From positions 192,001 through 256,000 of the forward strand of contig CAVYTU010000009.1 in the NCBI GenBank assembly GCA_963771465.1: a stretch of 64,000 bases of DNA, given 5' to 3'. The stretch is from an uncultured delta proteobacterium (GTDB taxonomy: Bacteria > Desulfobacterota > Binatia > UBA9968). The notes beneath the pieces are model-generated. The model was not told the origin of the DNA, made no database searches, and saw only the letters and a program-made list of their open reading frames with translations. The translations under genes and the position numbers were made by a program. Below, one piece after another: positions 6,501 to 52,569 of this stretch. The first letter of the stretch is position 1. Every line of letters begins with the position of its first letter.

Positions 6501-6536
6501 AAAGCGCTCCTGAAGATTTTTTGTCTTAAACGACGA

Positions 6537-7673
6537 TCATGCCGCCTTCGGCAATGATGCCGGAGCGTTCAGCTTGTATAACTTGCGCACGTTGGTATTG
6601 AGCAGCTTCTCACGGTCCGCGGCGGACAAGTGAGCCATATCGCGCTCGATCACCGCTCGCGAGTTGGGCCAGGTCGAGTTCTGATGCGGATAGTCATTGG
6701 ACCACATGCAGTTGTCGACGCCCCACCAGGAAAACAGCTTGCCGCCGACCACGTCGTTAAAAAAGGTGGCATAAATCTGCTCGGCAAAATACTCGCTCGG
6801 CAGTTTGCTCATCTGGACTTTTTCCGAATGGCGATGGCGTTTGTAGCCTTTATCGCATTGACCGAGCCAGAAGGGCATCCAGCCGATTTCATTTTCCACT
6901 GAAACGATCTTCAGGCGCGGGTAACGCTCCAGCACGCCGCTATAGATCATTTCAAACAGCGCGTTTTCGATTTCGCGGGTTTGCTCGATACCGATGCGAT
7001 AGCGTTTCATGCCGTGGCTGGTCTGGCGGTGCATGCTGTCGCCGAAGCCGGTGAGAATATGCAGGTGCACCGGCAGGTCGAGATCCTGCGACGCCGCCCA
7101 AAAACGCTCGTAGTGATCCGCGGTGAACGGCAAGCTCGGATGCGGCACTTGCCAGATCATGGTGCCGACGACGCCCTGTTTCTTGCAGCGCTCCATTTCG
7201 GCGATGGCGTGATCGACGTTGTACATCGAGATCAGCGCCACGCCGAACAAGCGATCCGGCACCTTCTGGCAGTATTCGATGATCCAGTCGTTGTAGGTTT
7301 TAAACAGCCCTTCCTGCAATGCGGCGTCCTCGACGCAATAAAGGCCGAGTCCCAAGCTCGGATAAAGCACCTCTGCCGCCACACCGTCGGTGAACATGTC
7401 GCCTTGACGCTCGATGGGATCCCAACCGCCGGGGCGCGCCACGGCAAAGCCGGCCTTGCGAAACTTTTCTACATTCTCGGGCTGCTGCCCTGCCATGAAC
7501 AAACCGCCCACGGCTTGAACCTGCACTTCAGGCGAACCGAACATCCAGGCATCGCGCTGGTCATCGAAAAACATTTTCGGCGCGCGCTCCCGCAGCGACG
7601 CAGGCATACCCTTTTCCCACAGATCCGGCACTTCAATCACATGCGAGTCCGACGAGATAATTGATTGTTCCAT
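6537..7673 (-). CDS. Amidohydrolase_2 family protein
   Basis: SSDSHV, EVLYPS, HLH, VENEIGW and SNDYPH motifs. Confidence 0.92.
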   Translation of the reverse strand: MEQSIISSDSHVIEVPDLWEKGMPASLRERAPKMFFDDQRDAWMFGSPEVQVQAVGGLFMAGQQPENVEKFRKAGFAVARPGGWDPIERQGDMFTDGVAAEVLYPSLGLGLYCVEDAALQEGLFKTYNDWIIEYCQKVPDRLFGVALISMYNVDHAIAEMERCKKQGVVGTMIWQVPHPSLPFTADHYERFWAASQDLDLPVHLHILTGFGDSMHRQTSHGMKRYRIGIEQTREIENALFEMIYSGVLERYPRLKIVSVENEIGWMPFWLGQCDKGYKRHRHSEKVQMSKLPSEYFAEQIYATFFNDVVGGKLFSWWGVDNCMWSNDYPHQNSTWPNSRAVIERDMAHLSAADREKLLNTNVRKLYKLNAPASLPKAA

Positions 7674-7687
7674 AGTCCCTCCTGTAG

Positions 7688-8680
7688 CTATCTTTTAGCC
7701 CATAGTTGATCGAAAAATCCACTCTTTTCAATGTCCTCCAAGAACCTGTTGTCAACTAATTCCTGGGGCCGCACTTTCTTCGCGCGCGGCTCAGTTTGGG
7801 CCACTTCATCGAGGATCGCTTGCAAGGCTTCGGGTTTCACCACCAAGCGCGGCTCCAAGGCCTTGATCTCGGCGTTGTAAGCCGACTCCAAAATGGTCCG
7901 GTCGGTGACGCGCAAGTGTTTGCCCAGAACCTTATAGACAAACTCCCGATCGGTATGCATGAGCTTCGACGCCTCGGCCATGGCGCGCATGTACTGCGCC
8001 ATAGCTTGGTTTTTTTTGGCAATCGTCGAGCGCTTGGTCACGAACGCCGTCGCCGTGTAAGGAATTTTTAGATCCGGCCCGTAAATGACATAGTGATAGC
8101 CGCGCGCCAGCGCCTGGGCGTCGGTCGGCGGCGTCAAGCAAGCGACTTCAACACCACCAGCAAGCAGCGCCGTGAACGACTCCGGATCGCCGCCCGATTG
8201 GAGAAAGGTGTAGTCGCGGTTGGGCTCCATGTTATGACGGCGCAGCGCCTGGATCGTGAAGTAGTGCGAGTTGCTGCCGATCCGGCTGACGGCGATACGC
8301 TTGCCTTTAAGATCTTCCGGCCGTTTCAGATTGCCGCCGGCGACAATGTTTTGGGTCATTAAATTTTTCACGCTGCCGACATAGACGATTTCCGTCGAGC
8401 CGCGCACGAAGGCGATGACGTTGCCGACGCCGCCGGTCATGGTCATATCGGGATCGCCGCCGAGCAACGCCGCGGTAACGATGCTTGATGACGCGATGAA
8501 AACTAAATTGTGGTCGAGATTATATTTCTTGAATAACCCGGCTTCCTCGGCGATCCACGGCAAGGCTTGCGCCATCACCCGCGCCGAATAGATCGTGGTA
8601 AACTTCTCCGCCGCCGGCGCGGGCGCGGCAGCCATCAGCAGCAAGACCGGCAATATGCCGAGCAGAGCTCGCCGTCTCAC
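7688..8680 (-). CDS. ABC transporter substrate-binding protein (NMT1/THI5/SsuA-like)
   Basis: Signal peptide; EAGLFKKYNL and DLKGKRIAVS motifs. Probable GTG start overlaps the upstream stop (GTGA). Confidence 0.88.
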   Translation of the reverse strand: MRRRALLGILPVLLLMAAAPAPAAEKFTTIYSARVMAQALPWIAEEAGLFKKYNLDHNLVFIASSSIVTAALLGGDPDMTMTGGVGNVIAFVRGSTEIVYVGSVKNLMTQNIVAGGNLKRPEDLKGKRIAVSRIGSNSHYFTIQALRRHNMEPNRDYTFLQSGGDPESFTALLAGGVEVACLTPPTDAQALARGYHYVIYGPDLKIPYTATAFVTKRSTIAKKNQAMAQYMRAMAEASKLMHTDREFVYKVLGKHLRVTDRTILESAYNAEIKALEPRLVVKPEALQAILDEVAQTEPRAKKVRPQELVDNRFLEDIEKSGFFDQLWAKR

Positions 8681-9687
8681 TTCTTGCTCCACAATTGATC
8701 CATGAAGCCGCTCTTGTTCATTTCATCCAAGTAGCGGCTATCCACCAATTCCTGCGGCTTGATGTTTTTCGCCCGCGCGTCAGTAGGCGCCAACTCATCG
8801 AGGATCGCCTGCAAGGATTCCATCTTGATCGCCAGACGCGGCTCCAAAGCTTTGATCTCGGCATTGTAGGCTGAATCCAGAACGCTCCGGTCGGAGATGC
8901 GCAGATACTTACCGAGAACTTTGTAGAAGAACTCCCGATCGGTGTGGACCAATTTGGAGGTTTCCGCCATGGCACGCATAAAATTAGTTATCACTTGGGG
9001 TCGCTTGGCGATCACCGAGCGCTTGGTGACAAACGCCGTGGCAGCATAGGGAATCTTCAAATCCGGACCGTAGACGACGTAATGATAACCTCGCGCGATC
9101 GCCAGGGCATCCGTGGGCGGCGTCAAATTGGCGACTTCGAGGGAACCGCTCATCAACGCGGCGAGCGTCTCCGGATCGCCGCCGGTTTGCAAAAAACTGT
9201 AGTCCCGGTTGGGTTCCATGTTATGACGGCGCAGCGCTTGGATCGTGAAGTAGTGAGAGTTGCCGCCGATGCGGCTCACGCCTATCCGTTTGCCCTTCAA
9301 GTCTTCAACTTTTTTGATATTGCCGCCGGCGACCAGCGTCTGAGTCATGACGTTCTTCACGCCGCCGGTGAAAACCACGTCGGTGGAACCGCGCACGTAG
9401 GCCGCCACGTTGCCGATGCCGCCGGTGACCGTCATCTCGGCGTCGCCGCCAAGCAACGCGGCAGTGACGATATTGGACGAGGAAATAAACACTAGATTGA
9501 AATCAAGGTTGTACTTCTTGAATATCCCAGCTTCCTGAGCCACCCAGGGAAACGACTGAGACATGACACGGGCCGAGTGAATGCCGACTAGCCTGTCCGG
9601 CGCCGCGGCGCCACGCGCATCGGTACGTATGGCGATTATCACCAGCGCCATCAATATCCCAAAGATCGAATTGAAATATTTACACAT
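8677..9687 (-). CDS. ABC transporter substrate-binding protein (NMT1/THI5/SsuA-like), close paralogue of the neighbour
   Basis: Same motifs and long identical peptide stretches (NSHYFTIQALRRHNMEPNRDY). Confidence 0.88.
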   Translation of the reverse strand: MCKYFNSIFGILMALVIIAIRTDARGAAAPDRLVGIHSARVMSQSFPWVAQEAGIFKKYNLDFNLVFISSSNIVTAALLGGDAEMTVTGGIGNVAAYVRGSTDVVFTGGVKNVMTQTLVAGGNIKKVEDLKGKRIGVSRIGGNSHYFTIQALRRHNMEPNRDYSFLQTGGDPETLAALMSGSLEVANLTPPTDALAIARGYHYVVYGPDLKIPYAATAFVTKRSVIAKRPQVITNFMRAMAETSKLVHTDREFFYKVLGKYLRISDRSVLDSAYNAEIKALEPRLAIKMESLQAILDELAPTDARAKNIKPQELVDSRYLDEMNKSGFMDQLWSKK

Positions 9688-11039: not shown

Positions 11040-12062
11040 TCAGCTCAGATTGTAGAGTTTCTTCGCGGTGTCGGCGAAAAGCCATTTTTTGGCTTCGTCG
11101 TTCAAATCTTTGCGCCGGCCCAAATGCTGGATATTTTCCGGAAACTCGGTGTCCCAGTGGGGAAAGTCCGAAGCATAATAAATGGCCTGGTGCGTCAACA
11201 CCTCGGTCACGGCACCGATCTGCGGTTCATAGTCCTCCGCGTGGAAAAATATCCGTCCATCTTTTAAATAGTCGATGGGCTTTCGTTTGCACTTTGGCGC
11301 TTCCACTTCGCCACGGATTTCCCACTCCTCGCTCATGCGGCCAAACCAGTAGGGCGCCCAGCTACAACCCGCTTCCATGAAGGCGACGCGCAGTTTGGGA
11401 AAGCGGTCGAAAACGCCGCGAAACATCATGCTGGTGCAATGCATCATCTGGGCGAAGGAATGAGACAAGGTGTGCACTTCGATAAATTGATCGAACATAT
11501 CGCCGGCAAAAAAATGCGGCCCGCGCACGGTGGCGTGGACGCCGACCATGCAGCCCAGCTTTTCCGCCTCTTCATAGATCGGCCAATAGTTCTCGTGGCC
11601 GAGCGGCATGCGCAAACCGACCGCCGGCAACATCAGGCCGACCAGTTTTAATTCTTTGACCGCCCGGCGTAATTCTTTCACAGCTTCCGGCACATCCTGG
11701 AACGACACCAAGGCGACGCATTTGAGCCGCGGGCTGACTTTTTGAAATTCTTCCGAACAGAAATTATTCCACGCCTGGGCGTATTGAACCGCCACATCCG
11801 GCTCGCGGATCCAACCGATGCTCAAGCCATTGGTCGGATAAAGCACCGCGGTGGAAACCTCACCGCGATCCATCGCCTCGAGCCAGCTCTTGGCGTCCCC
11901 TGCGCGGCTGCCAAGCTTGCCGCTCAACGAGCGATCCCAGCTATCTCCCAGCGTCAGCGTCGAGACCCGTTTGACGTATTTTTCCGGCATGTATTTCTTG
12001 AGTTGCGCGTCGGATTCGGTGATATGCCCGTCGGCATCGATGACTTCAAATTGATTCGCCAT
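11040..12062 (-). CDS. Amidohydrolase_2 family protein
   Basis: IDADGH, VLYPT, MEAGCSW and ASDFPH motifs. Confidence 0.92.
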   Translation of the reverse strand: MANQFEVIDADGHITESDAQLKKYMPEKYVKRVSTLTLGDSWDRSLSGKLGSRAGDAKSWLEAMDRGEVSTAVLYPTNGLSIGWIREPDVAVQYAQAWNNFCSEEFQKVSPRLKCVALVSFQDVPEAVKELRRAVKELKLVGLMLPAVGLRMPLGHENYWPIYEEAEKLGCMVGVHATVRGPHFFAGDMFDQFIEVHTLSHSFAQMMHCTSMMFRGVFDRFPKLRVAFMEAGCSWAPYWFGRMSEEWEIRGEVEAPKCKRKPIDYLKDGRIFFHAEDYEPQIGAVTEVLTHQAIYYASDFPHWDTEFPENIQHLGRRKDLNDEAKKWLFADTAKKLYNLS

Positions 12063-27850: not shown

Positions 27851-29557
27851 ATGAGTTACGATTTGCTTTTTCGTGGCGGCCGCATCGTCGACGGCTCCGG
27901 GTTACCGCCTTACATGGGCGATATCGCGCTCAAGGATGGAAAGATCGTTGAGATCGGCCGCATACACGGCGGCGCTGTTAAGACGATAAACGTCGACGGC
28001 CTCGTCGTCGCGCCTGGATTTATCGACCATCACACCCACATGGACGGGCAGATCCAGTGGGATCCTTATGCCACCAGCGAGCCCGAGCACGGCATTACGT
28101 CGATTGTCATGGGCAACTGCGGCCTGGCGCTGGCTCCAGTGAAGACTGGAGACGAAGAAGCGCTGATAAAAAGCTTCGTTCGTGTCGAGGCAATCCCGCG
28201 CTCTGTCCTGGAGCAAGGCGTCCGTTGGGGTTGGCATTCCTACGGTGATTATCTCGACCGCTTGGAAGGTCGGTTGGGCATCAACGTCGCTGGACTCGTG
28301 GGCCACATTGCCGTGCGCCAATATGTTTTGGGCGACGCATCGACGGAGCGAGCGGCAACAACCGAAGAAGTCCAGCGCATGAAACAGTTGGTACGAGAGG
28401 CGATGGAGGGCGGCGCGATTGGCTTTTCGACCAACCGCAACGACCGTCATATGCGCGAAGACGGCAAACCGGTGCCGAGCCGGCTGGCCGAAGATGAGGA
28501 AGTGTTCCAGTTGTGCGATGCCCTTGGCGAGCTTAACGCGGGTGTTATCCAGATCAACGAGGGACAAACCAAAATCGCCAAGCACTTCGCGTTGTACGAC
28601 CACGTGGCTCGACGCACGCAGCGCCCCATCGTCTGGCAAATCTTGCGCTACATTTCCTCGCGGCCGAATCTGTGGAAAGAACAGCTCGACGCTGTGGCAG
28701 CTATTTTTCAAAGTGGACAGCGCGCCTATGGTGCTTGCAGTACGATGCCGACGGTACGCCGCTTTACTCTCAAAAACACCCAGGTGTTTGACGAGTTTCC
28801 AACCTGGAAGAACGTGTTATGCATGCCCATCGATGCCCGGCGACAGGCGCTTGCAGACCCGGAAACCCGCCGTAGATTTCGTGCTGACTTTACCGATCCG
28901 CGTCCGACGCTTTTCCACCGTCGCTGGGAATTCGTCAAGGTCGAGAAAGTGGTCAAGTCCGAGAACGAAAAATTCACCGGCAAGAGCGTTGCCGAAGTGG
29001 GAGCCATGTGTGGTGAAGATCCGTTGGACGCATTTCTCAATCTTGCGCTCGGCGAGGATCTCGAAACTGCATTCCAAAACGCCAATTCAGGCGGCGACCA
29101 GCAGGCCATGGCGGAAATTCTTCGCAGCCCCCATGTCTTGATCGGCAACTCCGATGCCGGCGCCCATGTGCAATATGGTGCGCAGTTTGGGTACGGCAGC
29201 ACACTGTTGGGCTTGTGGGTGAGGGAACGGGAAGTGATGAGCTTGGAGTTGGCGGTCCATAAGCTCACTTTTGAAGTGGCGTCCGTTTACGGTCTTGCCG
29301 GCCGGGGATTACTACAGCCAGGCTATGCGGCAGATCTTGCGATATTCGATCCTGGGAAGATCCAGTCGTGCGAACCAGAGTGGGCGCAGGATTACCCGGG
29401 CGGGACCAAGCGGCTGATCCAGCGCGCGCTGGGAATGCATTACACCGTCGTCAATGGACGAGTGATATGTGAAGACGGCCGGTTGAGCGGCGATCTTCCC
29501 GGGCGAGTTCTGCGCACGCCGGCGTACAAAGGGCAAAGCGTCGCAGTGGGTGCTTAG
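27851..29557 (+). CDS. N-acyl-D-amino-acid deacylase family amidohydrolase
   Basis: APGFIDHHTHMD, GITSIVMGNCG, SDAGAH and ADLAIFDP motifs. Confidence 0.9.
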   Translation: MSYDLLFRGGRIVDGSGLPPYMGDIALKDGKIVEIGRIHGGAVKTINVDGLVVAPGFIDHHTHMDGQIQWDPYATSEPEHGITSIVMGNCGLALAPVKTGDEEALIKSFVRVEAIPRSVLEQGVRWGWHSYGDYLDRLEGRLGINVAGLVGHIAVRQYVLGDASTERAATTEEVQRMKQLVREAMEGGAIGFSTNRNDRHMREDGKPVPSRLAEDEEVFQLCDALGELNAGVIQINEGQTKIAKHFALYDHVARRTQRPIVWQILRYISSRPNLWKEQLDAVAAIFQSGQRAYGACSTMPTVRRFTLKNTQVFDEFPTWKNVLCMPIDARRQALADPETRRRFRADFTDPRPTLFHRRWEFVKVEKVVKSENEKFTGKSVAEVGAMCGEDPLDAFLNLALGEDLETAFQNANSGGDQQAMAEILRSPHVLIGNSDAGAHVQYGAQFGYGSTLLGLWVREREVMSLELAVHKLTFEVASVYGLAGRGLLQPGYAADLAIFDPGKIQSCEPEWAQDYPGGTKRLIQRALGMHYTVVNGRVICEDGRLSGDLPGRVLRTPAYKGQSVAVGA

Positions 29558-29642
29558 CTCACTGATCGGACGAACGCTTTGAGGAATTGTCACACGGTCA
29601 TCAATGAATTGACCACGCGAACTTGACCAGGAGGAAAATTTA

Positions 29643-30233
29643 ATGGCCAGGATCAAAGGTATAACGGAAAATGATGCCGATGATGAACTGCGAACTATTA
29701 TTGAAGAGCAGAAGAAACGTCATGGCTTTATCTCGAACGCCGTGCAGGTCTCTGCCGTTAGACCGACAATCTATAAAGGAGTGCAGGCGCTCGCCCAGGG
29801 AATTCAGCAATCGGGACTGATACCGCGGGAGCTACGCAATCTGGTTTGCGTCAGGACCGCGCACATCAACGGTTGCCCTTATTGAATTGACAGCAATGCA
29901 TCCGGGGCGATGCAAAACGGAGCTGCGGCAGAGAAAGTCGAAGCAGCGCTGGGAGATTACAAGAAGAACCCGTTGTTTTCCCTGCGCGAGCGGCTGGCGC
30001 TAGAGCTCGCCGAGCGCATGACTTACACAGGCAAACGGGTCACGGATAAGTTTTTCAAGCGTCTGAAGAAACATTTCAGCGATGAGGAGTTGGTGGAATT
30101 GGCCGCGGTGATCGCGCTGGAGAACTTTCGCAGCAAGTTCAACCCGGTCTTCGGCATAGAGGCTAACAACTTCTGCCCTCTGCCCGGAGTCAAAGAAGCT
30201 GCCGACGCCGCCACGCGTCGTTTCCATGAATGA
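29643..30233 (+). CDS. AhpD/carboxymuconolactone decarboxylase-like selenoprotein (CPYU; UGA at 29883-29885)
   Basis: ORFs 29643-29885 and 29910-30233 are in the same frame, separated only by a TGA at the second Cys position of NGCPYC. Read-through gives one 196-aa CMD-fold protein. Confidence 0.85.
29897..29914 (+). promoter_or_regulatory. Putative bacterial SECIS hairpin
   Basis: TGCATC-CGGGGC-GATGCA, a perfect 6-bp stem with G-rich loop, after an 11-nt spacer from the UGA. Confidence 0.7.
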
Positions 30234-30265
30234 GGCGAGACGCGCGCGGGTCTCGCCGTATCTTT
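30234..30265 (+). terminator. Probable intrinsic terminator
   Basis: GGCGAGAC/GTCTCGCC stem then GTATCTTT, directly after the stop codon. Confidence 0.55.
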
Positions 30266-30321
30266 AGTACGCCGGGAAAATTCAAAGGTGTGACAGAATT
30301 TAACCACAAAGTACCCTCGTC

Positions 30322-32655
30322 TTAGTCTCCGCGCTCTTGGTTCATCTCGACCAGCGCCCGCAGAACTCTTTCCGGAGTGATCGGCAAATCGCGAATGCGC
30401 ACGCCGACCGCATCGTGAATGGCGTTGGCGATGGCGGGCGCCACGGTTAACGCGCCGGTCTCGCCCGCTCCCTTGGCGCCGAAAGGGCCGTCGTCGTGGG
30501 CCACTTGAACGATGATGGGCTGAACCAGGTCCGGCATGTCCTTGATCGAAGCAACTTGATAATCGAGCAACGAACCGTTGATGAGTTGGCCCTCGTCAAA
30601 GATCATCTCTTCGAACATCGTCAAGCCGAGATGCATCAACGCGGCGCCGAGCAACTGCTGCTCGCAGTGGCGCGGATTGATCGCCGTACCGGTATCGCCC
30701 ACGCTGAAAAGTTTTAACACCTTGACGTGCCCGGTTTCCGTGTCGACTTCGACTTCGGCGGCAGTCGCCGAAGGAAACCAATACTCGGTGCACTTTTCCG
30801 ACTGGCCCGTTTCTGGATCCATCTGTGCTGCCGTCGGTTGACAAACGGCCTCGGCCGCGAGGGTGGTGCCGAGACTGCCGAACTTCGCCAGGAATATCTC
30901 GCCGATCGCCATGCCGCGCTCTTCCATGCCGCGCACAACGATTTTTCCATTGCGCGCGAGCAAATCGCCCGGATCGACTTCCAGCTTCGCGGCGACGACT
31001 TCGCACAGTTCCGTTTTGATCTTTGCCGCAGCCATGCGCACGGCGTTGCCCATGTGGTACGTCGAACGGCTGCCCGCGGTGATCGTGTCGTATGGCGTAA
31101 CGTCGGTATCGGGCTGAACGATATGGACGCGACCCGCGTCCATGCCCAACTCCTCCGCCACGATCTGTGCCATCGTCGTCTCCGATCCCTGGCCCATTTC
31201 CACCGTGCTGCTCAGCACGTTGGCCGTGCCGTCGGCATTGAGAATAACGATGGCGCCGGAAATCGACGGCGTTAGCACCGCCTTCACCCCCGCCGCGATG
31301 CCTTTGCCGCGGCGCTTGGTTCCGCTTTGCGCCAGCTTGGGCTTCGACCATTCGACCGCCTGGGCCGCCTTGCGAATCGCTTCTTTAACACCGAACGAAC
31401 GCACGACGGTGCCGGTGGCGAAGCGCTCTCCTTCGTCTAACGCCGGCGTCAAACGAAACTCCACCGGGTCCGCGCCCAGTGCGCGCGCGATCATATCGGT
31501 TTGTGAGTCATAGGCCCAAATCACTTGCGGCACGCCGAAACCGCGGAACGCGCCGGCCGGCACTTTGTTGGTGTAGACGCAGTAGGAATCGATCCACACG
31601 TTGGGAATGCGATACGGTCCCGCGGAAGTGTAACCTGACTTATGACCGATGCGCGGGCCGATCTCGGCATAGGCGCCGGTGTCCCAATAGACTTCGCACT
31701 TGCGCGCGGTGAGCGCGCCGTTTTTGACGGCGGTCTTAATCTTAGTAACGACTTTGTGCTTGGTGATCGTCAAAAACTCTTCTTCGCGCGTGAGCGCGTA
31801 ACGCACCGGCTTTTTCGTGATCAGCGCGAGAACGGTGACCAGCGGTTCCAGCTTGGCGTAGAGCTTGGCACCATAGCCGCCACCGAGGTACGGCACGCGC
31901 ACGCGTATCCGGTGCATGGGAATGCCGAATGTCGTGGCAAGCTCCGTGCGCACGTAGGACGGCGACTGACTCGCCGTCCAGACGTTGATCCGCTGGTGCT
32001 CGTCGACATAAACCAACGTCACGTGCGGCTCCATCGGCATATGCTGCGCCGGCGGCGAGCTGAACCAGTCTTCGAAAACCCGGTCGGCCTCGGCGAAGGC
32101 TTTGTCGACGTCGCCGGTGCGAAGTTTGAAGTGGTAACAGACATTGGACTGTTGACCGGCTTTGACATGGGCAAGATCGGCGAAAGCCTTGGCCGGCCGA
32201 TGCTGCTCATGCACGAGGGTCGCTCCAGCCTTCGCCGCTTCAATCACGTCATGCACCGCGGGCAGCGGTTCGTAGTCGACCTCGACAAGCTGGAGCGCGT
32301 CTTCCGCGGTGCGTCGATCGACCGCCGCCACCGCGACTACGGAATCGCCGATGTAGCAAACCCTTTCCACAGCGAGAATCGGCTGATCGCGAAATGCCGG
32401 GCCGAAATGCGGATCGATGCCCGGCATCTTGGCGATGTCAGCACCCGTCAATACGACGGCCACGCCTTCCAGCGCCTCGGCCTTGGATTTCTCGATGCGG
32501 GTAATTCGCGCGTGGGCATAGGGACTTCGCAACACGGCGACATGGAGCATTCCCGGCATCTCGATGTTGCCGACGTGCAATGCCCGGCCGGTTACTTTTG
32601 GGTTCGCATCCGTGCGATAAACCGATTGTCCTACCACCGAGTAGTTCGCCATCAT
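30322..32655 (-). CDS. Xanthine dehydrogenase/CoxL-family molybdopterin-binding subunit
   Basis: RSPYAHA, GGGYG, AFRGFG, EMGQG and GAKGAGE motifs. Confidence 0.93.
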   Translation of the reverse strand: MMANYSVVGQSVYRTDANPKVTGRALHVGNIEMPGMLHVAVLRSPYAHARITRIEKSKAEALEGVAVVLTGADIAKMPGIDPHFGPAFRDQPILAVERVCYIGDSVVAVAAVDRRTAEDALQLVEVDYEPLPAVHDVIEAAKAGATLVHEQHRPAKAFADLAHVKAGQQSNVCYHFKLRTGDVDKAFAEADRVFEDWFSSPPAQHMPMEPHVTLVYVDEHQRINVWTASQSPSYVRTELATTFGIPMHRIRVRVPYLGGGYGAKLYAKLEPLVTVLALITKKPVRYALTREEEFLTITKHKVVTKIKTAVKNGALTARKCEVYWDTGAYAEIGPRIGHKSGYTSAGPYRIPNVWIDSYCVYTNKVPAGAFRGFGVPQVIWAYDSQTDMIARALGADPVEFRLTPALDEGERFATGTVVRSFGVKEAIRKAAQAVEWSKPKLAQSGTKRRGKGIAAGVKAVLTPSISGAIVILNADGTANVLSSTVEMGQGSETTMAQIVAEELGMDAGRVHIVQPDTDVTPYDTITAGSRSTYHMGNAVRMAAAKIKTELCEVVAAKLEVDPGDLLARNGKIVVRGMEERGMAIGEIFLAKFGSLGTTLAAEAVCQPTAAQMDPETGQSEKCTEYWFPSATAAEVEVDTETGHVKVLKLFSVGDTGTAINPRHCEQQLLGAALMHLGLTMFEEMIFDEGQLINGSLLDYQVASIKDMPDLVQPIIVQVAHDDGPFGAKGAGETGALTVAPAIANAIHDAVGVRIRDLPITPERVLRALVEMNQERGD

Positions 32656-33584: not shown

Positions 33585-34336
33585 ATGGCCGACCGAAGAG
33601 CTTTCCTAGGGTTGATGGCTTCACTGGTCGGCTTGGCATGGTGCGCTCTATGGATCTGGGATCGCTCGCCTTATGGCCGCTACCTTAGTCATCAACAACT
33701 TGGCGAGATCGACGCCGGGTCTTTCCTTCTTCCCGATAACGCTCTACCTGATCGGTTGGACGCTGATGACCGTGGCCATGATGTTGCCGACGACGCTGCC
33801 GCTGCTCGAAATCTTCCGTCGCTTGACGGTGCGGCGCCAGGATCGGTCCCAGCTTCTGGCGCTGCTGGTTGCGGGTTATCTTGGCGTCTGGCTGGGGTTC
33901 GGTATTGCCGCCCACGGAGCTGATTGGCTGTTGCATGAAATCGTCGAGCGCAGTTCCTGGCTTGAAGCGAACGCGTGGCTTGATCGGCGCGGCGACGCTG
34001 CTCTTGGCCGGCGGCTTTCAATTTAGCCGCTTGAAGTACCGTTGCCTGGAGAAGTGCCGTGCGCCGTTGAGTTTCGTCACCGAGTACTGGCGCGGCCGCC
34101 ATGAGCGGCGCAACGCATTTTTGTTGGGTATCAATCACGGCCTCTTTTGCGTCGGCTGCTGCTGGGCGTTGATGCTCTTGATGTTCGCCGTCGGGGTCGG
34201 CAATGTCGCCTGGATGTTGACGCTCGGCGGCTTGATGGCCGCGGAGAAGAATCTGCCCTGGGGCGGCAAACTGAGCGCGCCGCTGGGTGTCGCTTTGCTC
34301 GGCTGGGGCGGGCTGATTTTGCTGCGTCACTCTTGA
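33585..34336 (+). CDS. DUF2182 predicted metal-binding membrane protein, two +1 frameshifts (about 33725 and 33979)
   Basis: W.LM..AMMLP, GY..VW, FQFS.LK..CL..CR.P, CVGCCWALM and EK motifs spread over three overlapping ORFs. Confidence 0.85.
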
Positions 34337-34375
34337 GCAGCGCCACAGCGAAAATCCAGTGAGAGGTTGGCCGAG

Positions 34376-35488
34376 ATGGAAGCAAAAAGCGCGAACAAAT
34401 ATTTTCCAACTGTCGGCGACGGCAGCGGGCTGGCTCAAACCGATGCGCTTTATCAAGAAGAGTTGCAGTTGGCGCTGCGCAATCGCGGCATGCCTCTGGA
34501 GGCACTGCGCTATCCGATCACACCGACCGGTCTGCACTACCTGCTGATCCACTATGACATACCGGAAGTAAACGCCGAAAAATGGCGCCTAAAAATCGCC
34601 GGGCGGGTCGCCAAACCGCTTGATCTAACTCTCGAGGAAATCAAAAAGCGGCCGCGCCGATCCATCCCCGTCACCATGGAATGCGCCGGCAACGGCCGAG
34701 CGCTATTCGCGCCGCGGCGCATAAGCCAACCCTGGCTTCTCGAAGCCATCGGCACCGCCGAGTGGACGGGCACGCCGCTTCGAAGCATCCTGCAGGATGC
34801 CGGCGTCAGCGCCGATGCCGCGGAGATTGTTTTTACCGGCCTGGATCAAGGAGTCGAAGGCGACCAGATTCAATTCTACCAGCGCAGTCTAACCGTCGAC
34901 GAAGCGACGAGGGACGAAGTCTTGCTGGTCTATGAGATGAATGGCGAACCGCTGCCGCCGCAACACGGCTATCCGCTGCGCCTGTTGATGCCGGGATGGT
35001 ATGGCATGGCGAGCGTGAAATGGCTCGATCGCATCGAAGCTGTTGCAGAGCCGTTTCAAGGCTATCAAATGGCGCGCGCCTATCGTTACGCGCAGACAGC
35101 GGACGGTCCGGGTGAAGCCGTCAACTTGATAAGAGCGCGGGCGCTGATGATTCCTCCCGGCATTCCAGACTTCATGAGCCGCAATCGGCTGGTCGACGCC
35201 GGCTCTGTTACTCTCACGGGTAAAGCGTGGGCCGGGCGAGTCGGCGTGTCGCGTGTCGAGGTTAGCGTCGACGGCGGCTCGACTTGGTCCGAGGCCCAAC
35301 TGGGCGAGTCCCAATCACCGTACGCATGGAAAAGTTGGACGTTCGTATGGAATGCCACACCGGGCGCATACGTGCTGTATGTCCGCGCCAGCGATGCCGA
35401 CGGCAATGTGCAGCCGGTCGATCAGCAATGGAACTTCGGCGGCTACGGCAACAACGGCGTGCAGCGCGTGAATGTCCTCGTGCGGTGA
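34376..35488 (+). CDS. Sulfite oxidase family molybdoenzyme (no export signal seen)
   Basis: ECAGNGR, EWTG, MNGEPLPPQHGYPLR, SVKWL and C-terminal VEVS.DGG.TW dimerisation domain. Confidence 0.92.
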   Translation: MEAKSANKYFPTVGDGSGLAQTDALYQEELQLALRNRGMPLEALRYPITPTGLHYLLIHYDIPEVNAEKWRLKIAGRVAKPLDLTLEEIKKRPRRSIPVTMECAGNGRALFAPRRISQPWLLEAIGTAEWTGTPLRSILQDAGVSADAAEIVFTGLDQGVEGDQIQFYQRSLTVDEATRDEVLLVYEMNGEPLPPQHGYPLRLLMPGWYGMASVKWLDRIEAVAEPFQGYQMARAYRYAQTADGPGEAVNLIRARALMIPPGIPDFMSRNRLVDAGSVTLTGKAWAGRVGVSRVEVSVDGGSTWSEAQLGESQSPYAWKSWTFVWNATPGAYVLYVRASDADGNVQPVDQQWNFGGYGNNGVQRVNVLVR

Positions 35489-39496: not shown

Positions 39497-40558
39497 TTAG
39501 TTATTAATCCCGTCGACCTTGATGTGGTAGAGATCGAGGACGTTTTGCCGAACGACTTTGTCGATCACCGGCTTCGGCAAGTGGCCTAATTCATCGGCGA
39601 TCACTTGGCGCGAGTGCGGCCAGGTCGACGCGGCGTGCGGATAGTCGCTCGACCACATGAAATTATCTTCGCCGAACCAATCCATCATCCGACCGCCGCA
39701 GGGGTCGCTAAAGAAAGTCGCGAACACCTGATCCTTGACGTATTCGCTGGGCAGCTTTTTCATGTAAGGCAGCGGCGCCTTGGGGCTATGGCGAACAAAA
39801 TACTTGTCCCACTCGTGACAATGGAAAGGAATCCAGGCGACTTCGTTTTCGACGTAGACGATCTTCAGCTTGGGATGCTTCGCGATGGCGCCGCCGAATA
39901 CGAGATCGAACAGTGTGTTCGCCGCATCGGCGAGTTTTTGGTTGACGGTCATCTTGTAGGTGTCCAAGCCCTTGCGGTCGAAGCGGCTGTAATTGAAACC
40001 GGTCAAGATATGCACGTTGACCGGCATGTCGAGTTCAGACGCCGCTTCCCAGAACGGATAGTAGTATTCACTGGTAAACGGCAGATTGTCCGGCGGCACC
40101 TGCCAGATCATGCAGCCGATCATGCCGTTCTTTTTGCAGCGTTCGAGTTCTTTGATCGCGTTGGGAATGCTGTACATGGAAATATTAGGAATGCCGAAGA
40201 GTCGGCCCGGCGCGGCTTTGCAATATTCCATCATCCAATCGTTGGCGATTTGAAAACAGGCTTCCTGCAGCTCGGCGTCTTCCAGGGCGAAAAGTCGCAA
40301 CCCGAACGTCGCGTACAACACCTCGGCGCTGACGCCATCGACAGCCATTTCATCCAAACGGGCCGTGGGGTCTTGCCCCCCAGGTTTTTCACCGGCCGAA
40401 TTGCGCGGTGGAAATTTCGGAAACTTGGCGCGCAGACTCGGGGTGAGATTTTTTTCCCAAAGGTCGGGCGGCTCCATGATATGTGAATCCGACGAGACGA
40501 TTTTATCTTTCCCCAATACTTGTTCCGCGGTGCGTTTCACCGCAGTCGCTGTGGTCAT
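39497..40558 (-). CDS. Amidohydrolase_2 family protein
   Basis: SSDSH, HILTG, VENEVAW and SSDYPH motifs; similar to 6537-7673. Confidence 0.92.
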   Translation of the reverse strand: MTTATAVKRTAEQVLGKDKIVSSDSHIMEPPDLWEKNLTPSLRAKFPKFPPRNSAGEKPGGQDPTARLDEMAVDGVSAEVLYATFGLRLFALEDAELQEACFQIANDWMMEYCKAAPGRLFGIPNISMYSIPNAIKELERCKKNGMIGCMIWQVPPDNLPFTSEYYYPFWEAASELDMPVNVHILTGFNYSRFDRKGLDTYKMTVNQKLADAANTLFDLVFGGAIAKHPKLKIVYVENEVAWIPFHCHEWDKYFVRHSPKAPLPYMKKLPSEYVKDQVFATFFSDPCGGRMMDWFGEDNFMWSSDYPHAASTWPHSRQVIADELGHLPKPVIDKVVRQNVLDLYHIKVDGINN

Positions 40559-43825: not shown

Positions 43826-44245
43826 ATGGCTGACGCAAATATTCTCGGTGGCCTGATCGGCGGCGCGCTTATCGGTATCGCCGCTTCCCTGCTCTTGCTC
43901 TTGAACGGCCGCATCGCCGGGATATCCGGCATTCTCAGCGGCGTCTTTGGGACCATTGGCGGCACGGAACGATATTGGCGGCTCGCCTTTGTCATCGGGC
44001 TCATCTGCGGCGCGGCGATTTATTTTCTCGCCGCAGGCCGCCACGCAGTTCAACTTCCAGCTGGCAATCTAACTCTGATCGTCGCGGGATTGCTCGTCGG
44101 CTTCGGCACGAGACTCGGTTCGGGCTGCACTTCGGGCCATGGTGTTTGCGGACTGGCGCGTCTCTCGCCGCGTTCACTGGCGGCGACTGCGACATTTATG
44201 CTGTTCGGTATGCTTACGGTATTTCTGATTCGCCACTTGAGCTGA
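43826..44245 (+). CDS. YeeE/YedE (PmpA/B-type) sulfur-compound transporter subunit
   Basis: GRIAGISG and GSGCTSGHGVCG motifs. Confidence 0.9.
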   Translation: MADANILGGLIGGALIGIAASLLLLLNGRIAGISGILSGVFGTIGGTERYWRLAFVIGLICGAAIYFLAAGRHAVQLPAGNLTLIVAGLLVGFGTRLGSGCTSGHGVCGLARLSPRSLAATATFMLFGMLTVFLIRHLS

Positions 44246-44247
44246 TT

Positions 44248-44655
44248 ATGCAATTGACTGCTGCCTTCGCCAGTGGAATTATTTTCGGCCTCGGATTGAG
44301 CATTTCCGAGATGATCAACCCGGCGCGGGTGATCGGCTTTCTCGACATCACAGGCTGGTGGGACCCGACGCTCATGTTCGTTATGGCTGGCGCGCTCGCA
44401 GTCACGATTCCAGCGTTCACTTTAATTATGCGCCGCAGTCAGCCGCTGCTTGATGGCCAATTTGTTCTGCCAATCAAACGCGTCGTCGATCGGCCGCTGA
44501 TTCTTGGCGCAGCAATTTTCGGCATCGGCTGGGGCCTCGGCGGTTTCTGCCCTGGCCCGGCGTTGGCCGCTTTGGCAAGCGGCTCGCCGGCGGTTATTTT
44601 ATTTGTTCTCGCGATGATCGTCGGCCAGCGGCTTGCCGGCCGTTTCGCTGGATAA
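44248..44655 (+). CDS. YeeE/YedE (PmpA/B-type) partner subunit
   Basis: M.NP.RV.GFLD..G.WDPTL and FG.GWGL.G.CPGP motifs. Confidence 0.9.
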   Translation: MQLTAAFASGIIFGLGLSISEMINPARVIGFLDITGWWDPTLMFVMAGALAVTIPAFTLIMRRSQPLLDGQFVLPIKRVVDRPLILGAAIFGIGWGLGGFCPGPALAALASGSPAVILFVLAMIVGQRLAGRFAG

Positions 44656-45101: not shown

Positions 45102-46442
45102 TTAGTACCAACGAGGCAATTCCAGCAGCGCGTGCTGATTGGATTCGCCGCGTAATAGGGCTAGCCACTTTTCCTGGCCGCGCTTAAATTGCTGCAATTT
45201 GACTCCGGTCAATGAGTTCGGACCGGGAATCTTTATTGACAGGAAATCGATCTTTTCGCCATTGAGGGCAAACTCAAAGTGAAGATGCGGGCCGGTCGCG
45301 TAACCGGTCTGGCCCACTGTACCGATTGGGTCGCCGGTTTTGACCCTCGCGCCTTCCTCTAGCCCAACGGCGATCCGTGATAAATGGGCGTATGTGGACG
45401 AATAACCGCCGGCATGTTTGAGCTCGACCATCAAACCGTAGCCCCCACGCGAGCCGGCAAATTCCACCGTTCCAGCGCCCACCGCAATGACTGCTGTCCC
45501 CTGCGGCGCCTGATAATCCACCGCTTCATGGGGCCGCAAGACTCCCGTCGCTGGATCAGGCCGCGCCAAATCGAATGTCGAGGAGATGCGATCGAACTTT
45601 AACGGCGCGGCCAGAAAAGAGCTTGGTAATAAGTTGCCGTCGATATCGTAATACTGCAACGAGTCATCCGCGCCGGAAAATCCCAATGCTTCATAGGATC
45701 GGCCGCCCGCTACGACCCGCGCCGCGGCGATCTGACCGACCACCACATGGCCGTCGAGATAATATTTCTGCGGCATCGCAACGCTAACTTCATCGCCGGC
45801 GCTCAAATCCGCCGAGAGGTCGAGTTCGGAACTGAATATCCTGTGCAACTCAGCGATTTGCGCCGAAGATAAACCAGCTTGGGCCGCGCTCTCAGAAAAT
45901 TGCTTGCTCACCTTCACACGCAGGAGATTTAACCGCGCAACGTGAAACAGCTCTTCGCGCTCCACCGACCAGCCGCCCAGGGTCGCGCTGGCGCGCACGA
46001 TATGATTTTGCAGCACAAACTCCACCGCCCGTAGGTTTCGGCTGTGTGCATCCAATACCAAATTAAATGATTGATCCCTTGGCATGCGCCGCCAGTCGAC
46101 GATATCGCGCATTTTTTTCAGCAGCTCCTGGCTCGAGCTCTGCGGCAAACCGTGGCGCTTCAGAATGTTGGTGATATTTTCATTGCGTCCAAGCTTTACT
46201 GCCAGCCGTTCAACCACTCCCGTGTTCAATCTATCCGGCGTCGCCGTGCTGCGGCGATCGTCGGACGGATTTAATGACGGGACCAAAGCGAAGATTCCCA
46301 GCATCGCCGCTGCGAAAAGCGCGGCGCCGACCGGTAACCCGTCGAAGATATCAGCAAAGAAGTTGCGGAGAATTTTGAGATACATTTGGCAATCGATCGG
46401 AAGCGTTTCGTGGTTCATATCGGATAAGCCATAGTGGGTCAA
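45102..46442 (-). CDS. M23 family peptidoglycan DD-endopeptidase (MepM-like)
   Basis: HEAVDY, YAHLS and TGPHLHFE zinc motifs. Start is uncertain. Confidence 0.88.
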   Translation of the reverse strand: MTHYGLSDMNHETLPIDCQMYLKILRNFFADIFDGLPVGAALFAAAMLGIFALVPSLNPSDDRRSTATPDRLNTGVVERLAVKLGRNENITNILKRHGLPQSSSQELLKKMRDIVDWRRMPRDQSFNLVLDAHSRNLRAVEFVLQNHIVRASATLGGWSVEREELFHVARLNLLRVKVSKQFSESAAQAGLSSAQIAELHRIFSSELDLSADLSAGDEVSVAMPQKYYLDGHVVVGQIAAARVVAGGRSYEALGFSGADDSLQYYDIDGNLLPSSFLAAPLKFDRISSTFDLARPDPATGVLRPHEAVDYQAPQGTAVIAVGAGTVEFAGSRGGYGLMVELKHAGGYSSTYAHLSRIAVGLEEGARVKTGDPIGTVGQTGYATGPHLHFEFALNGEKIDFLSIKIPGPNSLTGVKLQQFKRGQEKWLALLRGESNQHALLELPRWY

Positions 46443-46956: not shown

Positions 46957-47904
46957 TTACGCGAGAATCGCCTTACAGATTTCCTCGACGTGACGATGAT
47001 CCGTGCCGCAGCAACCGCCGAGCACGTTCAAACTCGCGAGCTTGTCACGAAGTTGTCGGTATTGTCGACCGAGTTCGTTGGGATTTCCAACATCGAGCTC
47101 GGTGGCTTCGTCGAGTTCTTTATGACTTTTCGTCGAAGCATTCGCTCTCACGCCGCGGATTCTTGCGGTCCACGACGCGTCTTTATCCAACACCCCTGCG
47201 AAGTGACTCGGGTGCGCGCAGTTAATCATATAATAAGCCGGTAAAGGGATGGTCGCGCCATCGACTTGTTCGATGGCATCCTTTAGAGATTGACCGTTGG
47301 GCAATTGGCCGTCGATCTCGACTGTGAACGAAATAACGACCGGCATGCCGACCCGCCGTGCCGCGCGGGCAATCCCGATCGCTTCAGCCGGATAGGTCAT
47401 GGTGATCGCAGTTACCATATCCGCATCCGCAGCGCGAAAGGTTTCCGCTTGGAGCGCATGATAGTTCTCAGCTTCTGTCTCCGTCATAAAGCTCGCCGGA
47501 TTGTAGCCGTCGCCGCGCGGCCCGATGCAGCCGCTGATAACCATCGGCGTGCCCGAGGTTTCAAATTCCTGCCGAATCCGATGCAGCATAGCGATGGCCC
47601 GACGATTGGCTTCGACGAGCGCTGCCTTCGAATAGCCAAGCTTCGCGCCCCAATCCGCGCTGGCGCGCCAGGTCGCGCTCTCGAGAATACAGCCCACGTC
47701 GTACCCGCTCGCGAGCGCGGCATAGGTGCGGAAATATTTCACCAGCGCCGACTCGCCGGCCGCATGCTTTAACAAGTCGAATGCCGCGAAGAACGGTAGT
47801 TCCAGCCCTTCGTGAAAGATCAGCGTGGTCTCGATACCGCCGTCGGTGACAAATAGATCGCCGGACAGTTGCGGCAATTGGTTTCGGTATTTTGCCATCG
47901 GCAC
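46957..47904 (-). CDS. Homocysteine S-methyltransferase family protein
   Basis: TDGG, GP.GDGY, INCAH and GGCCGT zinc ligands. Confidence 0.9.
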   Translation of the reverse strand: MPMAKYRNQLPQLSGDLFVTDGGIETTLIFHEGLELPFFAAFDLLKHAAGESALVKYFRTYAALASGYDVGCILESATWRASADWGAKLGYSKAALVEANRRAIAMLHRIRQEFETSGTPMVISGCIGPRGDGYNPASFMTETEAENYHALQAETFRAADADMVTAITMTYPAEAIGIARAARRVGMPVVISFTVEIDGQLPNGQSLKDAIEQVDGATIPLPAYYMINCAHPSHFAGVLDKDASWTARIRGVRANASTKSHKELDEATELDVGNPNELGRQYRQLRDKLASLNVLGGCCGTDHRHVEEICKAILA

Positions 47905-48008: not shown

Positions 48009-49295
48009 CTAGAGACCGTTTGAAGTCCCGTTCACGACCTTGGCGTCGCTATTATGCAGCATCGCTTCTTGTTGTTCCCGCAGCCGCTCAAAACGCGCCA
48101 GATTTTGGCCGGCCAACTGCTGCTCTTTTGGAATCCGTAGATTCAAAAAATTGACCTTGGTGCCGCCGCGCAAAAACTCAAAATGAAGATGCGGTCCGGT
48201 TGTGTGACCCGTCTGACCGACAAATCCAATCACGTCGCCGGGATCCACCGACTGGCCTTTGCGCAAATTCGCCGCGAACCGAGAAAAATGCGCATAGCGA
48301 GACATGTAGCTGCCGGAATGGCGTACATCGACAACATTTCCGTAGCCGTTGCGCCGACCGATAAATTCCACCTTGCCGCGCCCGATGGAAACCACCGGCG
48401 TTCCGGTCGGCGCCGCGTAATCGATCGCCAGGTGAGGTCTTACCGTGCGAAAGATCGGATGGCGTCGAGTGGGGTTAAACGGCGAAGAAATGCGTGCATA
48501 ACTCAAAGGCGCACGCAAGAAAGAGCGCCGCAGCGCTTGTCCGTTGCGATTATAATAAGCGCCAGTGGCGTTGCCGTCTAAGAAATAATAGGCGTTGTGG
48601 AGTTCATTCTCAGCTTCCAGTTCGGCTGCTAGGATTCGACCCTCTCCGCGCCTACCATCGGCGTAACGCAGGGTTTCGACGATCACGCTAAATCCGTCGC
48701 CCCGCTGAAAGTCAGAAAAGAAGTCGATATCGGATTCGAAGATCTTCGCCAAATCGAAAATATGTTGCGGCGTCAATCCCGCTTCAGTGCCGCTTTCGTA
48801 AAGACTTCCCTTGACCGTGCCACGCACGACTTGTTTTTCGCGCACGAACGGAATTTCGTGCCGCTCCGCGAACCAGCCTTGTTGCGTAGCTTTGACCCGA
48901 ACCAGCGCGTCATCGACGACAAACTCCATCGCTTGTACCGTGCGATCCTCGCCGCTCAAGACCACCGCGACATTGTCACCGGGGCGAATCTTGCGTGGAT
49001 TTAGAAACGGACGGAGTTTCTCGATCATCGCGTGAGCCGATGGCGGAGCAACTCCAAAGCGCTTCAACACGGAACCCAAAGTTTCTCCCGAGCGCAATTT
49101 AACGCCAACTCGAGAATCCACCGGCGCAGCGATCGTGGCGGCCGGCGCCGTTTGGTATTCTTGCTGCGGCGCATTGACCATCGGCGCGCACAACAACGCG
49201 ATCGCAGCCAGCATGCCAATCCATGCGCAACGATAGCAAAACTCCAGCAGCAATTTGTTTATCGATGGGCGGCAAGGGATAGGTCGATCATTCAT
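48009..49295 (-). CDS. M23 family peptidoglycan DD-endopeptidase (MepM-like)
   Basis: TM anchor, LysM/OapA-like region, HLAIDY and TGPHLHFE motifs. Confidence 0.92.
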   Translation of the reverse strand: MNDRPIPCRPSINKLLLEFCYRCAWIGMLAAIALLCAPMVNAPQQEYQTAPAATIAAPVDSRVGVKLRSGETLGSVLKRFGVAPPSAHAMIEKLRPFLNPRKIRPGDNVAVVLSGEDRTVQAMEFVVDDALVRVKATQQGWFAERHEIPFVREKQVVRGTVKGSLYESGTEAGLTPQHIFDLAKIFESDIDFFSDFQRGDGFSVIVETLRYADGRRGEGRILAAELEAENELHNAYYFLDGNATGAYYNRNGQALRRSFLRAPLSYARISSPFNPTRRHPIFRTVRPHLAIDYAAPTGTPVVSIGRGKVEFIGRRNGYGNVVDVRHSGSYMSRYAHFSRFAANLRKGQSVDPGDVIGFVGQTGHTTGPHLHFEFLRGGTKVNFLNLRIPKEQQLAGQNLARFERLREQQEAMLHNSDAKVVNGTSNGL

Positions 49296-51542: not shown

Positions 51543-52569
51543 ATGGCCAGGAAAAACATCAACGCGCCAGATATCAGTTGCCAGATTGTTCTTCTTGTTC
51601 ATTTTATCGTTCGGCGCAGCGCAAACACTGTGGGCCGCCGCGCCGCTGGAAAAACTCACCATCGGCTGGAGCGCCATCGCCGGTTCGCAAGCACCGTTTT
51701 GGATCACCAAGGAAGCCGGCTTATTCGAGAAGAACGGCCTCGACGTCATCATGATCTACCTCGACGGCGGTTCTCGGGCGACTCAAGCGATGATGTCCGG
51801 CGATATGCCGATCGCCCAGGTCGGCGGCAATGCGCCGGTGGTCGCCAAGCTGCGCGGCGCCGATATCACACTTATTGCTGGACTGCTCAATGTTCTTGCC
51901 TACAGCATGGTGGTATCACCGGAAATCAAAAAGCCGGAAGATCTACGCGGTAAAAAACTTACCGTTAGCCGCTTCGGCTCCAACTCCGATTATGCGACGC
52001 GCAAGATTTTGCTTAAGTGGGGTTTGCGTCCCGACATAGATGTTGCAGTGCTACAGATTCCCGGCGGCCAGCCGACCCGCCTCGCGGCGATTCAATCGGG
52101 GCAGATTCACGGTATGGTTGCGCAACCGCCAGTGACGAATCTTGCTCGCAAATTCAAGATGAACATCATCGCCGAACCGGAAGACTTTGGCGGCGCCTAC
52201 CCGACCACGCCGGTGGCCGCGCGGATTTCGTTCATCAAGGACAAGCGCGAAACTGTCCGCAAATTTACTCGCGCGCTGTTGGAGGGTATTCACGTTTACA
52301 AGACGCAAAAGGATTTCAGCAAAAAAGTGATCGCCAAGTATGTAAAGACCGACGATAACGACGCTTTGGAAGACAGCTACCAGTTTTTCTCTCGCCTCGT
52401 GCCGCAAAAACCCTATCCCTCGCTTGACGCCATCAAAGAAGCCCTCGCCGAGCTCGGCGAGAAAGATCCCAAGGTGCGTTCAGCCAAGCCCGAAGACTTC
52501 GCCGACATGAGCGTGATCAAAGAGTTCGACGACAACGGGTTTATCGATGGGCTTTATAAGAAGCGCTAA
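51543..52569 (+). CDS. NMT1/THI5-type ABC substrate-binding protein; probable +1 insertion in the A5 run after the ATG
   Basis: EAGLFEKNGLDV and DLRGK motifs. ATG at 51543 joins the 51586 ORF if one base is removed. Confidence 0.85.

Follow-up and report, generated by a model that had tools for sequence, protein, structure and literature searches.

The locus described here lies in a 64,000-nucleotide (nt) window, i.e., the whole stretch of DNA that was analyzed (contig CAVYTU010000009.1, positions 192,001 to 256,000 of the forward strand, assembly GCA_963771465.1 of an uncultured delta proteobacterium), with a G+C content of 55.7%. It held one gene of 196 codons plus stop, running from an ATG at 29643 to a TGA at 30233 (+) and interrupted by an in-frame TGA at codon 81 (29883–29885). 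The frame started with MARIKG, reached the internal TGA after HINGCPY, and was then open up to a second TGA at 30231–30233. The codons around the interruption were AAC GGT TGC CCT TAT TGA ATT GAC AGC AAT GCA, giving the motif C78-P-Y-U81 when the TGA is read as selenocysteine (Sec, U). Plain calling of open reading frames (ORFs) split the gene into an 80-residue ORF (29643–29885) and a 107-residue ORF (29910–30233). A GGAGG-like motif stood ahead of the same ATG in most related loci, as it did in the window (Table 1). An initial annotation, made from the sequence alone, had proposed a hidden AhpD/CMD-like selenoprotein with a CxxU motif, and all of the sequence items it listed were present: the codon reading, the frame open to 30233, the AGGAGG, Asn85, and Cys178 in NFCPLP. 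Its interpretation was supported by comparisons of the TGA, of the Cys column and of a hairpin 3′ of the TGA, and the segment 29643–30233 very probably encodes one 196-residue AhpD/CMD protein in which UGA-81 is decoded as Sec via the downstream hairpin.

The two ORFs are regarded as a single gene because alignments to the Pfam CMD family, to the NCBIfam model NF053654 and to PA0269 all ran across the TGA; by sequence comparison they form one protein of the AhpD/CMD superfamily, in its YciW or "peroxidase-related" branch. The CMD match (PF02627) covered residues 41–103 and, at 46.9 bits, exceeded the gathering threshold of 23 (E 2.7e-12). NF053654, named "YciW-related (seleno)protein", matched residues 1–173 to model positions 1–172 of 179 (E 4.5e-47), and the crystal-structure sequence of PA0269 aligned over residues 33–172. 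TIGR00778 (ahpD_dom) scored 36.4 against a cutoff of 27.8, and TIGR01926 (peroxidase-related enzyme) scored 61.4 bits, below its cutoff of 81.8. With NF053654 the score was 160.1 bits, about half of the curated cutoff of 310; relatives tested with this model (L039, L074, L076, P0110, P0120, and P0097) scored 124–164 bits, and none of the seven sequences including the window protein reached the cutoff. Paralogues and Chloroflexota forms were likewise below the cutoffs of the NCBIfam selenoprotein models. In related loci, tblastn matches spanned residues 1–196.

An AlphaFold2 model of the read-through protein, built on a 75-sequence alignment, had ten helices, with a predicted local distance difference test (pLDDT) score of 94.3 and a predicted template modeling score (pTM) of 0.90. 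With E limited to 0.001, Foldseek gave 37 matches in the PDB, of which the listed ones were chains of the AhpD/CMD family. The best structural matches were 2prr (template modeling (TM) score 0.80), Bmp8 (6ohi, 0.77), and AhpD of D. radiodurans (6k40, 0.76). The product is confidently predicted to adopt an all-helical AhpD-like fold.

A scan of one genome per species yielded 280 relatives along with 554 pattern matches; of the relatives, the best 80 loci, 58–91% identical to the window protein, were kept. The metagenome-assembled genomes (MAGs) of these 80 loci were titled Binatia, "delta proteobacterium", Thermodesulfobacteriota, Dehalococcoidia/SAR202/Chloroflexota, Verrucomicrobiia, Acidiferrales, and Eisenbacteria. 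Conservation of the UGA in relatives was a check set beforehand, and the in-frame stop inside NGCP[Y/F]-stop-[I/L/M]D was TGA in 80/80 loci, or 81/81 with the window. The terminal stops of the same 81 genes were mixed (TGA 51, TAA 16, and TAG 14). The U was residue 81 in 70 of the 72 sequences with an assigned start, the exceptions being L008, with U at 82, and L012, for which the pattern chose an earlier Met. The U/C column was the sole invariant column of the 75-sequence alignment, and near-invariant columns, including that of Asp83, lay on either side of the TGA. No Cys form of this clade was seen above about 40% identity, the best 80 of the 280 relatives all carrying TGA.

If the TGA were a true stop, as in a pseudogene, a nonsense-disabled gene or a sequencing error, the two ORFs given by standard calling and the lack of Sec machinery in the window would be as expected. 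This is hardly credible for a TGA that recurs in 80/80 independent assemblies from several phyla, at a column that is always TGA though the terminal stops vary, and with both halves of the protein conserved up to the near-invariant columns beside it. Relatives with TGC or TGT would have favored a pseudogene, and the opposite was found.

Ten MAGs contributed two loci each to the best 80 of the 280 relatives, with TGA in every copy (L001/L039, L003/L067, L004/L068, L006/L031, L008/L042, L009/L070, L010/L051, L017/L018, L058/L060, and L062/L069). Such pairs usually consisted of an "IDSNASGAM" type, 85–91% identical to the window protein, and an "I/LDINASSGM" type (63–68%), and both types had the TGA and the hairpin. 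No second paralogue was found in the window.

In an alignment with distant full-length homologues (29–39% identity), 26 of 28 sequences had Cys opposite U81, as the proposal of a selenoprotein had anticipated; the exceptions were P0127 (Arg) and P0100 (Ser). The C78 column was also Cys in 26 of the 28. In P0127 the motif was QCPFRID, and the Arg codon CGA is one base from TGA, while P0115 had Ser instead of the first Cys (SSPFCVD). In the structural model, C78-P-Y-U81 was at the start of helix 79–91, and C78, Y80, and U81 aligned with Cys48, Tyr50, and Cys51 of the Cys-Ala-Tyr-Cys center of PA0269. A weak TIGR00777 match was in the same register (residues 66–103 to model positions 118–155, E 0.042). 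On these alignments, U81 appears to take the place of the second motif Cys.

According to PMC3141380, the proton relay of PA0269 consists of Glu36, Cys48, Tyr50, Cys51, and His55, and the Mycobacterium tuberculosis AhpD equivalents are Glu118, Cys130, His132, Cys133, and His137. At the site of the canonical relay Glu, 12 residues ahead of the first Cys, the window protein had Asn66, and this position was Asn, His, Tyr or Ser, never Glu, in the related loci listed. The canonical His, four residues after the second Cys, was Asn85, and all 81 listed translations of the Sec type had Asn at this position. The 28 homologues of the Cys type were more varied, with Asn in 11, His in six, Gly in six and another residue in five. 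Because Asn was also found in these 11 Cys-type homologues, its presence at the motif-His position is not tied to Sec; the substitution reported initially is real, and is peculiar neither to this gene nor to selenoproteins. Similarly, the C-terminal Cys described as extra is present and is a conserved family feature: Cys178 was at least 90% conserved both in alignment A1 and in the 75-sequence alignment, and was present in 19 of the 28 distant homologues.

In the fdhF gene of Escherichia coli, an upper stem-loop of minimal size, placed roughly 11 nt from the UGA, is sufficient for Sec insertion. The hairpin of the window gene had the sequence T-GCATC-CGGGGC-GATGC-A, with a core helix formed by 29898–29902 and 29909–29913, a loop at 29903–29908 (C GGGG C, with a C.C mismatch) and an optional outer U-A pair (29897–29914). 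The spacer from the UGA was 12 nt to the conserved G-C pair; the 11 nt given in the initial annotation hold if the outer U-A pair is counted. An alignment of 77 distinct 54-nt stretches around the UGA was gap-free, without indels from UGA to stem, and the hairpin proposed 3′ of the UGA was thus at a fixed distance in 77/77 sequences. The five core pairs were formed in every sequence (385/385 cells). Pair 24–35 was AU in 59 sequences, GU in 11 and GC in seven, which represents one compensatory change; the seven GC cases were Chloroflexota-type sequences in which Met90 was replaced by Ala or Thr and the synonymous third base of Ala86 was changed too. A sixth pair was CG in 43 sequences, GC in four and unpaired in 30. 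Sliding the partner strand by 1–3 columns reduced pairing from 87.8% to 20.6–55.1%, and RNAalifold independently gave the same five base pairs. Loop positions G29 and G31 were invariant.

Codon usage within the stem pointed in the same direction. The third position of Ala86 was A in 61 sequences and G in 19, never C or T (entropy 0.79 bits), and that of Ser87 was C in 75, G in four and T in one (0.38 bits), compared with 1.03–1.91 bits at 13 other four-fold sites in residues 41–94. Judging from the alignment, synonymous sites in the stem are constrained, and the conserved element is a minimal stem-loop at a fixed distance from the UGA. This agrees with the description in PMC1088965 of bacterial Sec insertion sequence (SECIS) elements as stem-loops whose small apical loop has a G.

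The hairpin also bears on a reading of the locus as two small genes, in which an 80-residue N-terminal and a roughly 107-residue C-terminal protein would be translated separately and perhaps assemble later. An in-frame ATG (Met90) nine codons after the TGA in 70 of the 81 sequences, together with the listing of both fragments as proteins in databases, would suit such an arrangement. However, the Met90 ATG lies within the conserved stem and is conserved because it is part of it, and in the other 11 sequences the first in-frame start was elsewhere (codons +1, +3, +13, +18, +21, +36, and +44). Moreover, each Cys-type homologue is one chain in which the CxxC is intact, and a split would lose the second redox residue and, in the model, cut the active-site helix 79–91. 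Two separate genes are therefore very improbable here.

The databases hold this family largely in pieces. Of 106 protein-database matches, five were near full length and most others were C-terminal pieces of 108–130 residues, while an exhaustive representative search returned 80-residue N-terminal pieces ending in NGCPY (P0109 and P0196). These N-terminal pieces and the dozens of C-terminal ones are the two false fragments that standard annotation had been expected to produce. Four of the near-full-length sequences, gene calls from the Joint Genome Institute (JGI), had Trp at the Sec column (P0002, P0003, P0004, and P0006). The Trp readings are artefacts of gene calling under genetic code 4, because P0002 and P0003 also read Trp through the true terminal TGA, which added residues. 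The fifth, P0005, diverged through the middle of the protein and was read as a frame-shifted gene call. The Trp-bearing JGI calls look like code-4 calling on short contigs, a practice that hides selenoproteins. In public databases the gene and hundreds of its relatives are present as two truncated pieces, labeled "hypothetical" or "CMD family", or as code-4 Trp mistranslations; once the Sec codon is recognized, the redox enzyme is complete again.

A selenium-free reading, in which the UGA specifies one of the standard residues Trp, Gly, Cys, or Arg through a code change or near-cognate suppression, is improbable. The JGI Trp calls are what it would produce, the Arg of P0127 is a standard residue at the same column, and no Sec machinery was found in the window or in the related flanks. 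The code-4 calls, however, are artefacts that overrun a real stop, and the homologues carry Cys at this column, not Trp or Gly. In the window, the 45 Pfam-supported ORFs ended in TGA (18), TAG (12), or TAA (15). By this count TGA serves as a normal stop in the genome, and it also terminates the same gene in 51/81 cases, so the code is not reassigned. Furthermore, SelB-dependent decoding calls for just such a hairpin, fixed in its distance and constrained at synonymous sites.

Taken alone, the gene and hairpin features of the window do not exceed chance. In its six frames, 43 TGAs had at least 60 open codons on each side, and a comparable hairpin was found 3′ of 84 of 1944 TGAs (4.3%). The case rises above chance through comparison with relatives, in which the TGA, the hairpin and the protein sequence before and after the TGA are conserved.

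Several observations weigh against decoding as Sec. The local fold of the window copy was unremarkable, with a z-score of -1.32 over 91 nt (17/200 shuffles as good) and -0.44 over 43 nt (55/200 shuffles as good), and no Rfam family was matched in the whole window at the gathering score or in 29850–29990 at E up to 10. On its own, so short a hairpin is weak; the window copy was among those with an unpaired sixth pair (C.C), and its loop was without U. The compensatory GC pairs were confined to one clade, the seven Chloroflexota-type rows, and hairpin conservation may be inflated by common ancestry. A lower SECIS helix (CAGC/GCUG) predicted for the window copy was rejected as not conserved, only 40.9% of cells being paired. 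On the protein side, two canonical AhpD proton-relay residues were missing, and the chemistry and substrate proposed below are suggested by family membership. ARAGORN called no tRNA in the 64-kb window; it was also applied to 60 of the 80 loci, small parts of their genomes, and no tRNA-Sec was called there. No sel genes were present among the 53 Pfam-scanned ORFs and four further ORFs of the window, nor did tblastn with the E. coli proteins SelA, SelB, and SelD match anything in it. The same queries had a single match in the related flanks (990,215 nt), an AIR-synthase-like ORF in L020; as a SelD candidate this ORF was rejected, since NCBIfam placed it nearer HypE/ThiL and it scored 94.6 bits against a SelD cutoff of 125. 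The negative results for sel genes are absence of evidence only, since the stretches are small parts of genomes. Finally, no conserved neighbor pointing to a partner was found in the window or the 80 loci.

Under Sec decoding, a ribosome arriving at UGA-81 would meet the G-rich-loop hairpin 12 nt downstream, bound by SelB carrying Sec-tRNA(Sec), and Sec would be inserted at UGA-81 in place of termination. Insertion itself and its dependence on SelB are proposed by analogy with established bacterial Sec decoding. The resulting C78-x-x-U81 would form a redox center where the second helix of the conserved pair begins. The product is most likely a thiol/selenol-based oxidoreductase of AhpD-like type, and could act as a peroxidase, as a reductant of a peroxiredoxin-type partner or in another reduction, as in characterized CMD-fold CxxC enzymes.

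The gene belongs to an already known selenoprotein type and is mis-annotated. AhpD-like CxxU selenoproteins have been known since 2005 as a new family in Sargasso Sea data (27 sequences, COG2128; PMC1088965), AhpD-like 1 (299 sequences) and AhpD-like 2 (70) were among the most abundant selenoprotein families in the GOS data (PMC2398784), the AhpD-like selenoprotein appears in a 2026 review with TIGR01926 cited as its model (PMC13188914), and AhpD-like is a family in BSepDB (PMC13326102). The window protein resembles these AhpD-like selenoproteins (COG2128/TIGR01926) in its CxxU within an AhpD/CMD fold and in having widespread Cys homologues (PMC1088965, PMC2398784). In the same sources the resemblance extends to the small stem-loop with an apical-loop G after the UGA, and to a function that is described as uncharacterized and presumed redox. 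The window clade differs in falling below the TIGR01926 cutoff (61.4 vs 81.8 bits) and in its origin, MAGs whose titles name Binatia, "delta proteobacterium" and Chloroflexota, unlike the ocean-surface AhpD-like reads. NF053654, also labeled "GroundWater_YciW", was the best-scoring curated model and aligned end-to-end across the Sec column, and it matched the paralogues and distant Cys homologues too; with a score below its cutoff, however, the window clade is a sister group and not a member.

Among characterized proteins, PA0269 of Pseudomonas aeruginosa (PDB 2o4d, 2ijc, and 7xw1) and M. tuberculosis AhpD share the two-helix active-site motif and the all-helical fold. In contrast to both, the window protein has Sec for the second Cys, Asn66 for the relay Glu (Glu36/Glu118), and Asn85 for the His (His55/His137) reported as invariant in PMC3141380. 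It also differs from PA0269 in length (196 vs 145 residues), in its conserved C-terminal Cys and in the lack of an adjacent ahpC, none being next to the gene in the window. The CMD-fold debrominase Bmp8 (PDB 6ohi/6ohj) was similar in full-length topology (TM 0.77 over 185 columns; sequence E 1e-09), yet identity was only about 21%, and nothing here pointed to halogenated substrates or to a gene cluster of the bmp type.

The clade could be summarized by the signature [N/H/Y/S]-x11-C-x2-U-x3-N plus the conserved Cys178, and this Cys could serve as a third redox partner. It is possible, although doubtful at present, that these sequences represent a distinct YciW/AhpD-like clade, widespread and often duplicated, in which Sec is fixed, with a rebuilt catalytic center, perhaps a chemistry unlike AhpD-type peroxide defense, and perhaps a first pointer to Sec in Binatia. 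No paper linking Binatia or Binatota with selenocysteine or selenoproteins was found in the literature library searched, even with a broader query, and the clade may already be catalogued in BSepDB. Genomes that appear Binatia-like are flagged by the gene as those of selenium users. Of biochemical note are the proton-relay residues of AhpD, consistently lost here, and the conserved third Cys in a clade where Sec is fixed.

Table 1. Coordinates and supporting evidence of the features of the candidate selenoprotein gene in the window.
Feature	Position	Strand	Evidence
Shine-Dalgarno-like AGGAGG	29629..29634	+	Direct reading; 8 nt upstream of ATG 29643
Single coding sequence, predicted AhpD/CMD-like (YciW-related) selenoprotein	29643..30233	+	Translation with TGA as U; Pfam, NCBIfam and PDB alignments; tblastn
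Cys78 codon, first residue of the C-P-Y-U redox motif	29874..29876	+	Near-invariant in the distant-homologue and 75-sequence alignments
In-frame TGA, predicted Sec codon U81	29883..29885	+	TGA column conserved; Cys in homologues
Asn85 codon, at the His position of canonical CxxCxxxH	29895..29897	+	Alignment with the motif His of PA0269
SECIS-like hairpin	29897..29914	+	Core pairs in 77/77 sequences; one compensatory change; RNAalifold; synonymous constraint
Cys178 codon in NFCPLP	30174..30176	+	Conserved C-terminal cysteine
Terminator-like hairpin (stem-loop 30234–30257) with T-rich tail	30234..30267	+	Directly after the stop codon

The terminator-like hairpin behind the gene is weak by itself, as a terminator consensus scan gave one site compared with 1.1 expected from shuffles. 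The gene was flanked by an amidohydrolase (27851–29557) and a molybdopterin-binding dehydrogenase subunit (30322–32655, -), neither of which was beside it at more than two of the 80 loci. NMT1-like binding proteins were the commonest flanking family (28/80 loci) and were plentiful in the window as well; their abundance looks like a lineage-wide expansion and not a functional link. The 64 kb held five Amidohydro_2 ORFs and three NMT1/THI5-like binding proteins; paralogues of these families included 5481–7673, 11040–12062, 39497–40558, 58678–59772, 7688–9687, and 51586–52569.

Of the 43 TGAs with long open stretches on each side, only one other, at 34334–34336, was an attractive selenoprotein candidate. 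It ended a PpoB2 copper-chaperone-like ORF (33869–34336, +; PF09948, E 3.6e-42) that was in frame with the next ORF (34367–35488, +), a sulfite-oxidase-like molybdoenzyme (PF00174). The candidate was rejected in favor of adjacent genes, given the different domain families and a start codon after the TGA. An opposite-strand ORF at 33692–34552 had no Pfam match and is probably spurious.

YedE-type proteins have been linked to selenium metabolism, and a Sulf_transp ORF (PF04143, 43811–44245) overlapping a DUF6691 ORF (43975–44655, +) looks like a YeeE/YedE-like sulfur-transport pair. In the related locus L074, ARAGORN called a 445-nt "tmRNA" (6579–7023) that overlapped a tRNA-Ala at its 3′ end, near tRNA-Arg and tRNA-Trp, and is probably false. 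Two paralogous M23 peptidases with Csd3_N2 domains (45102–46442 and 48009–49295, -) flanked a gene of the homocysteine S-methyltransferase family (46957–47904).

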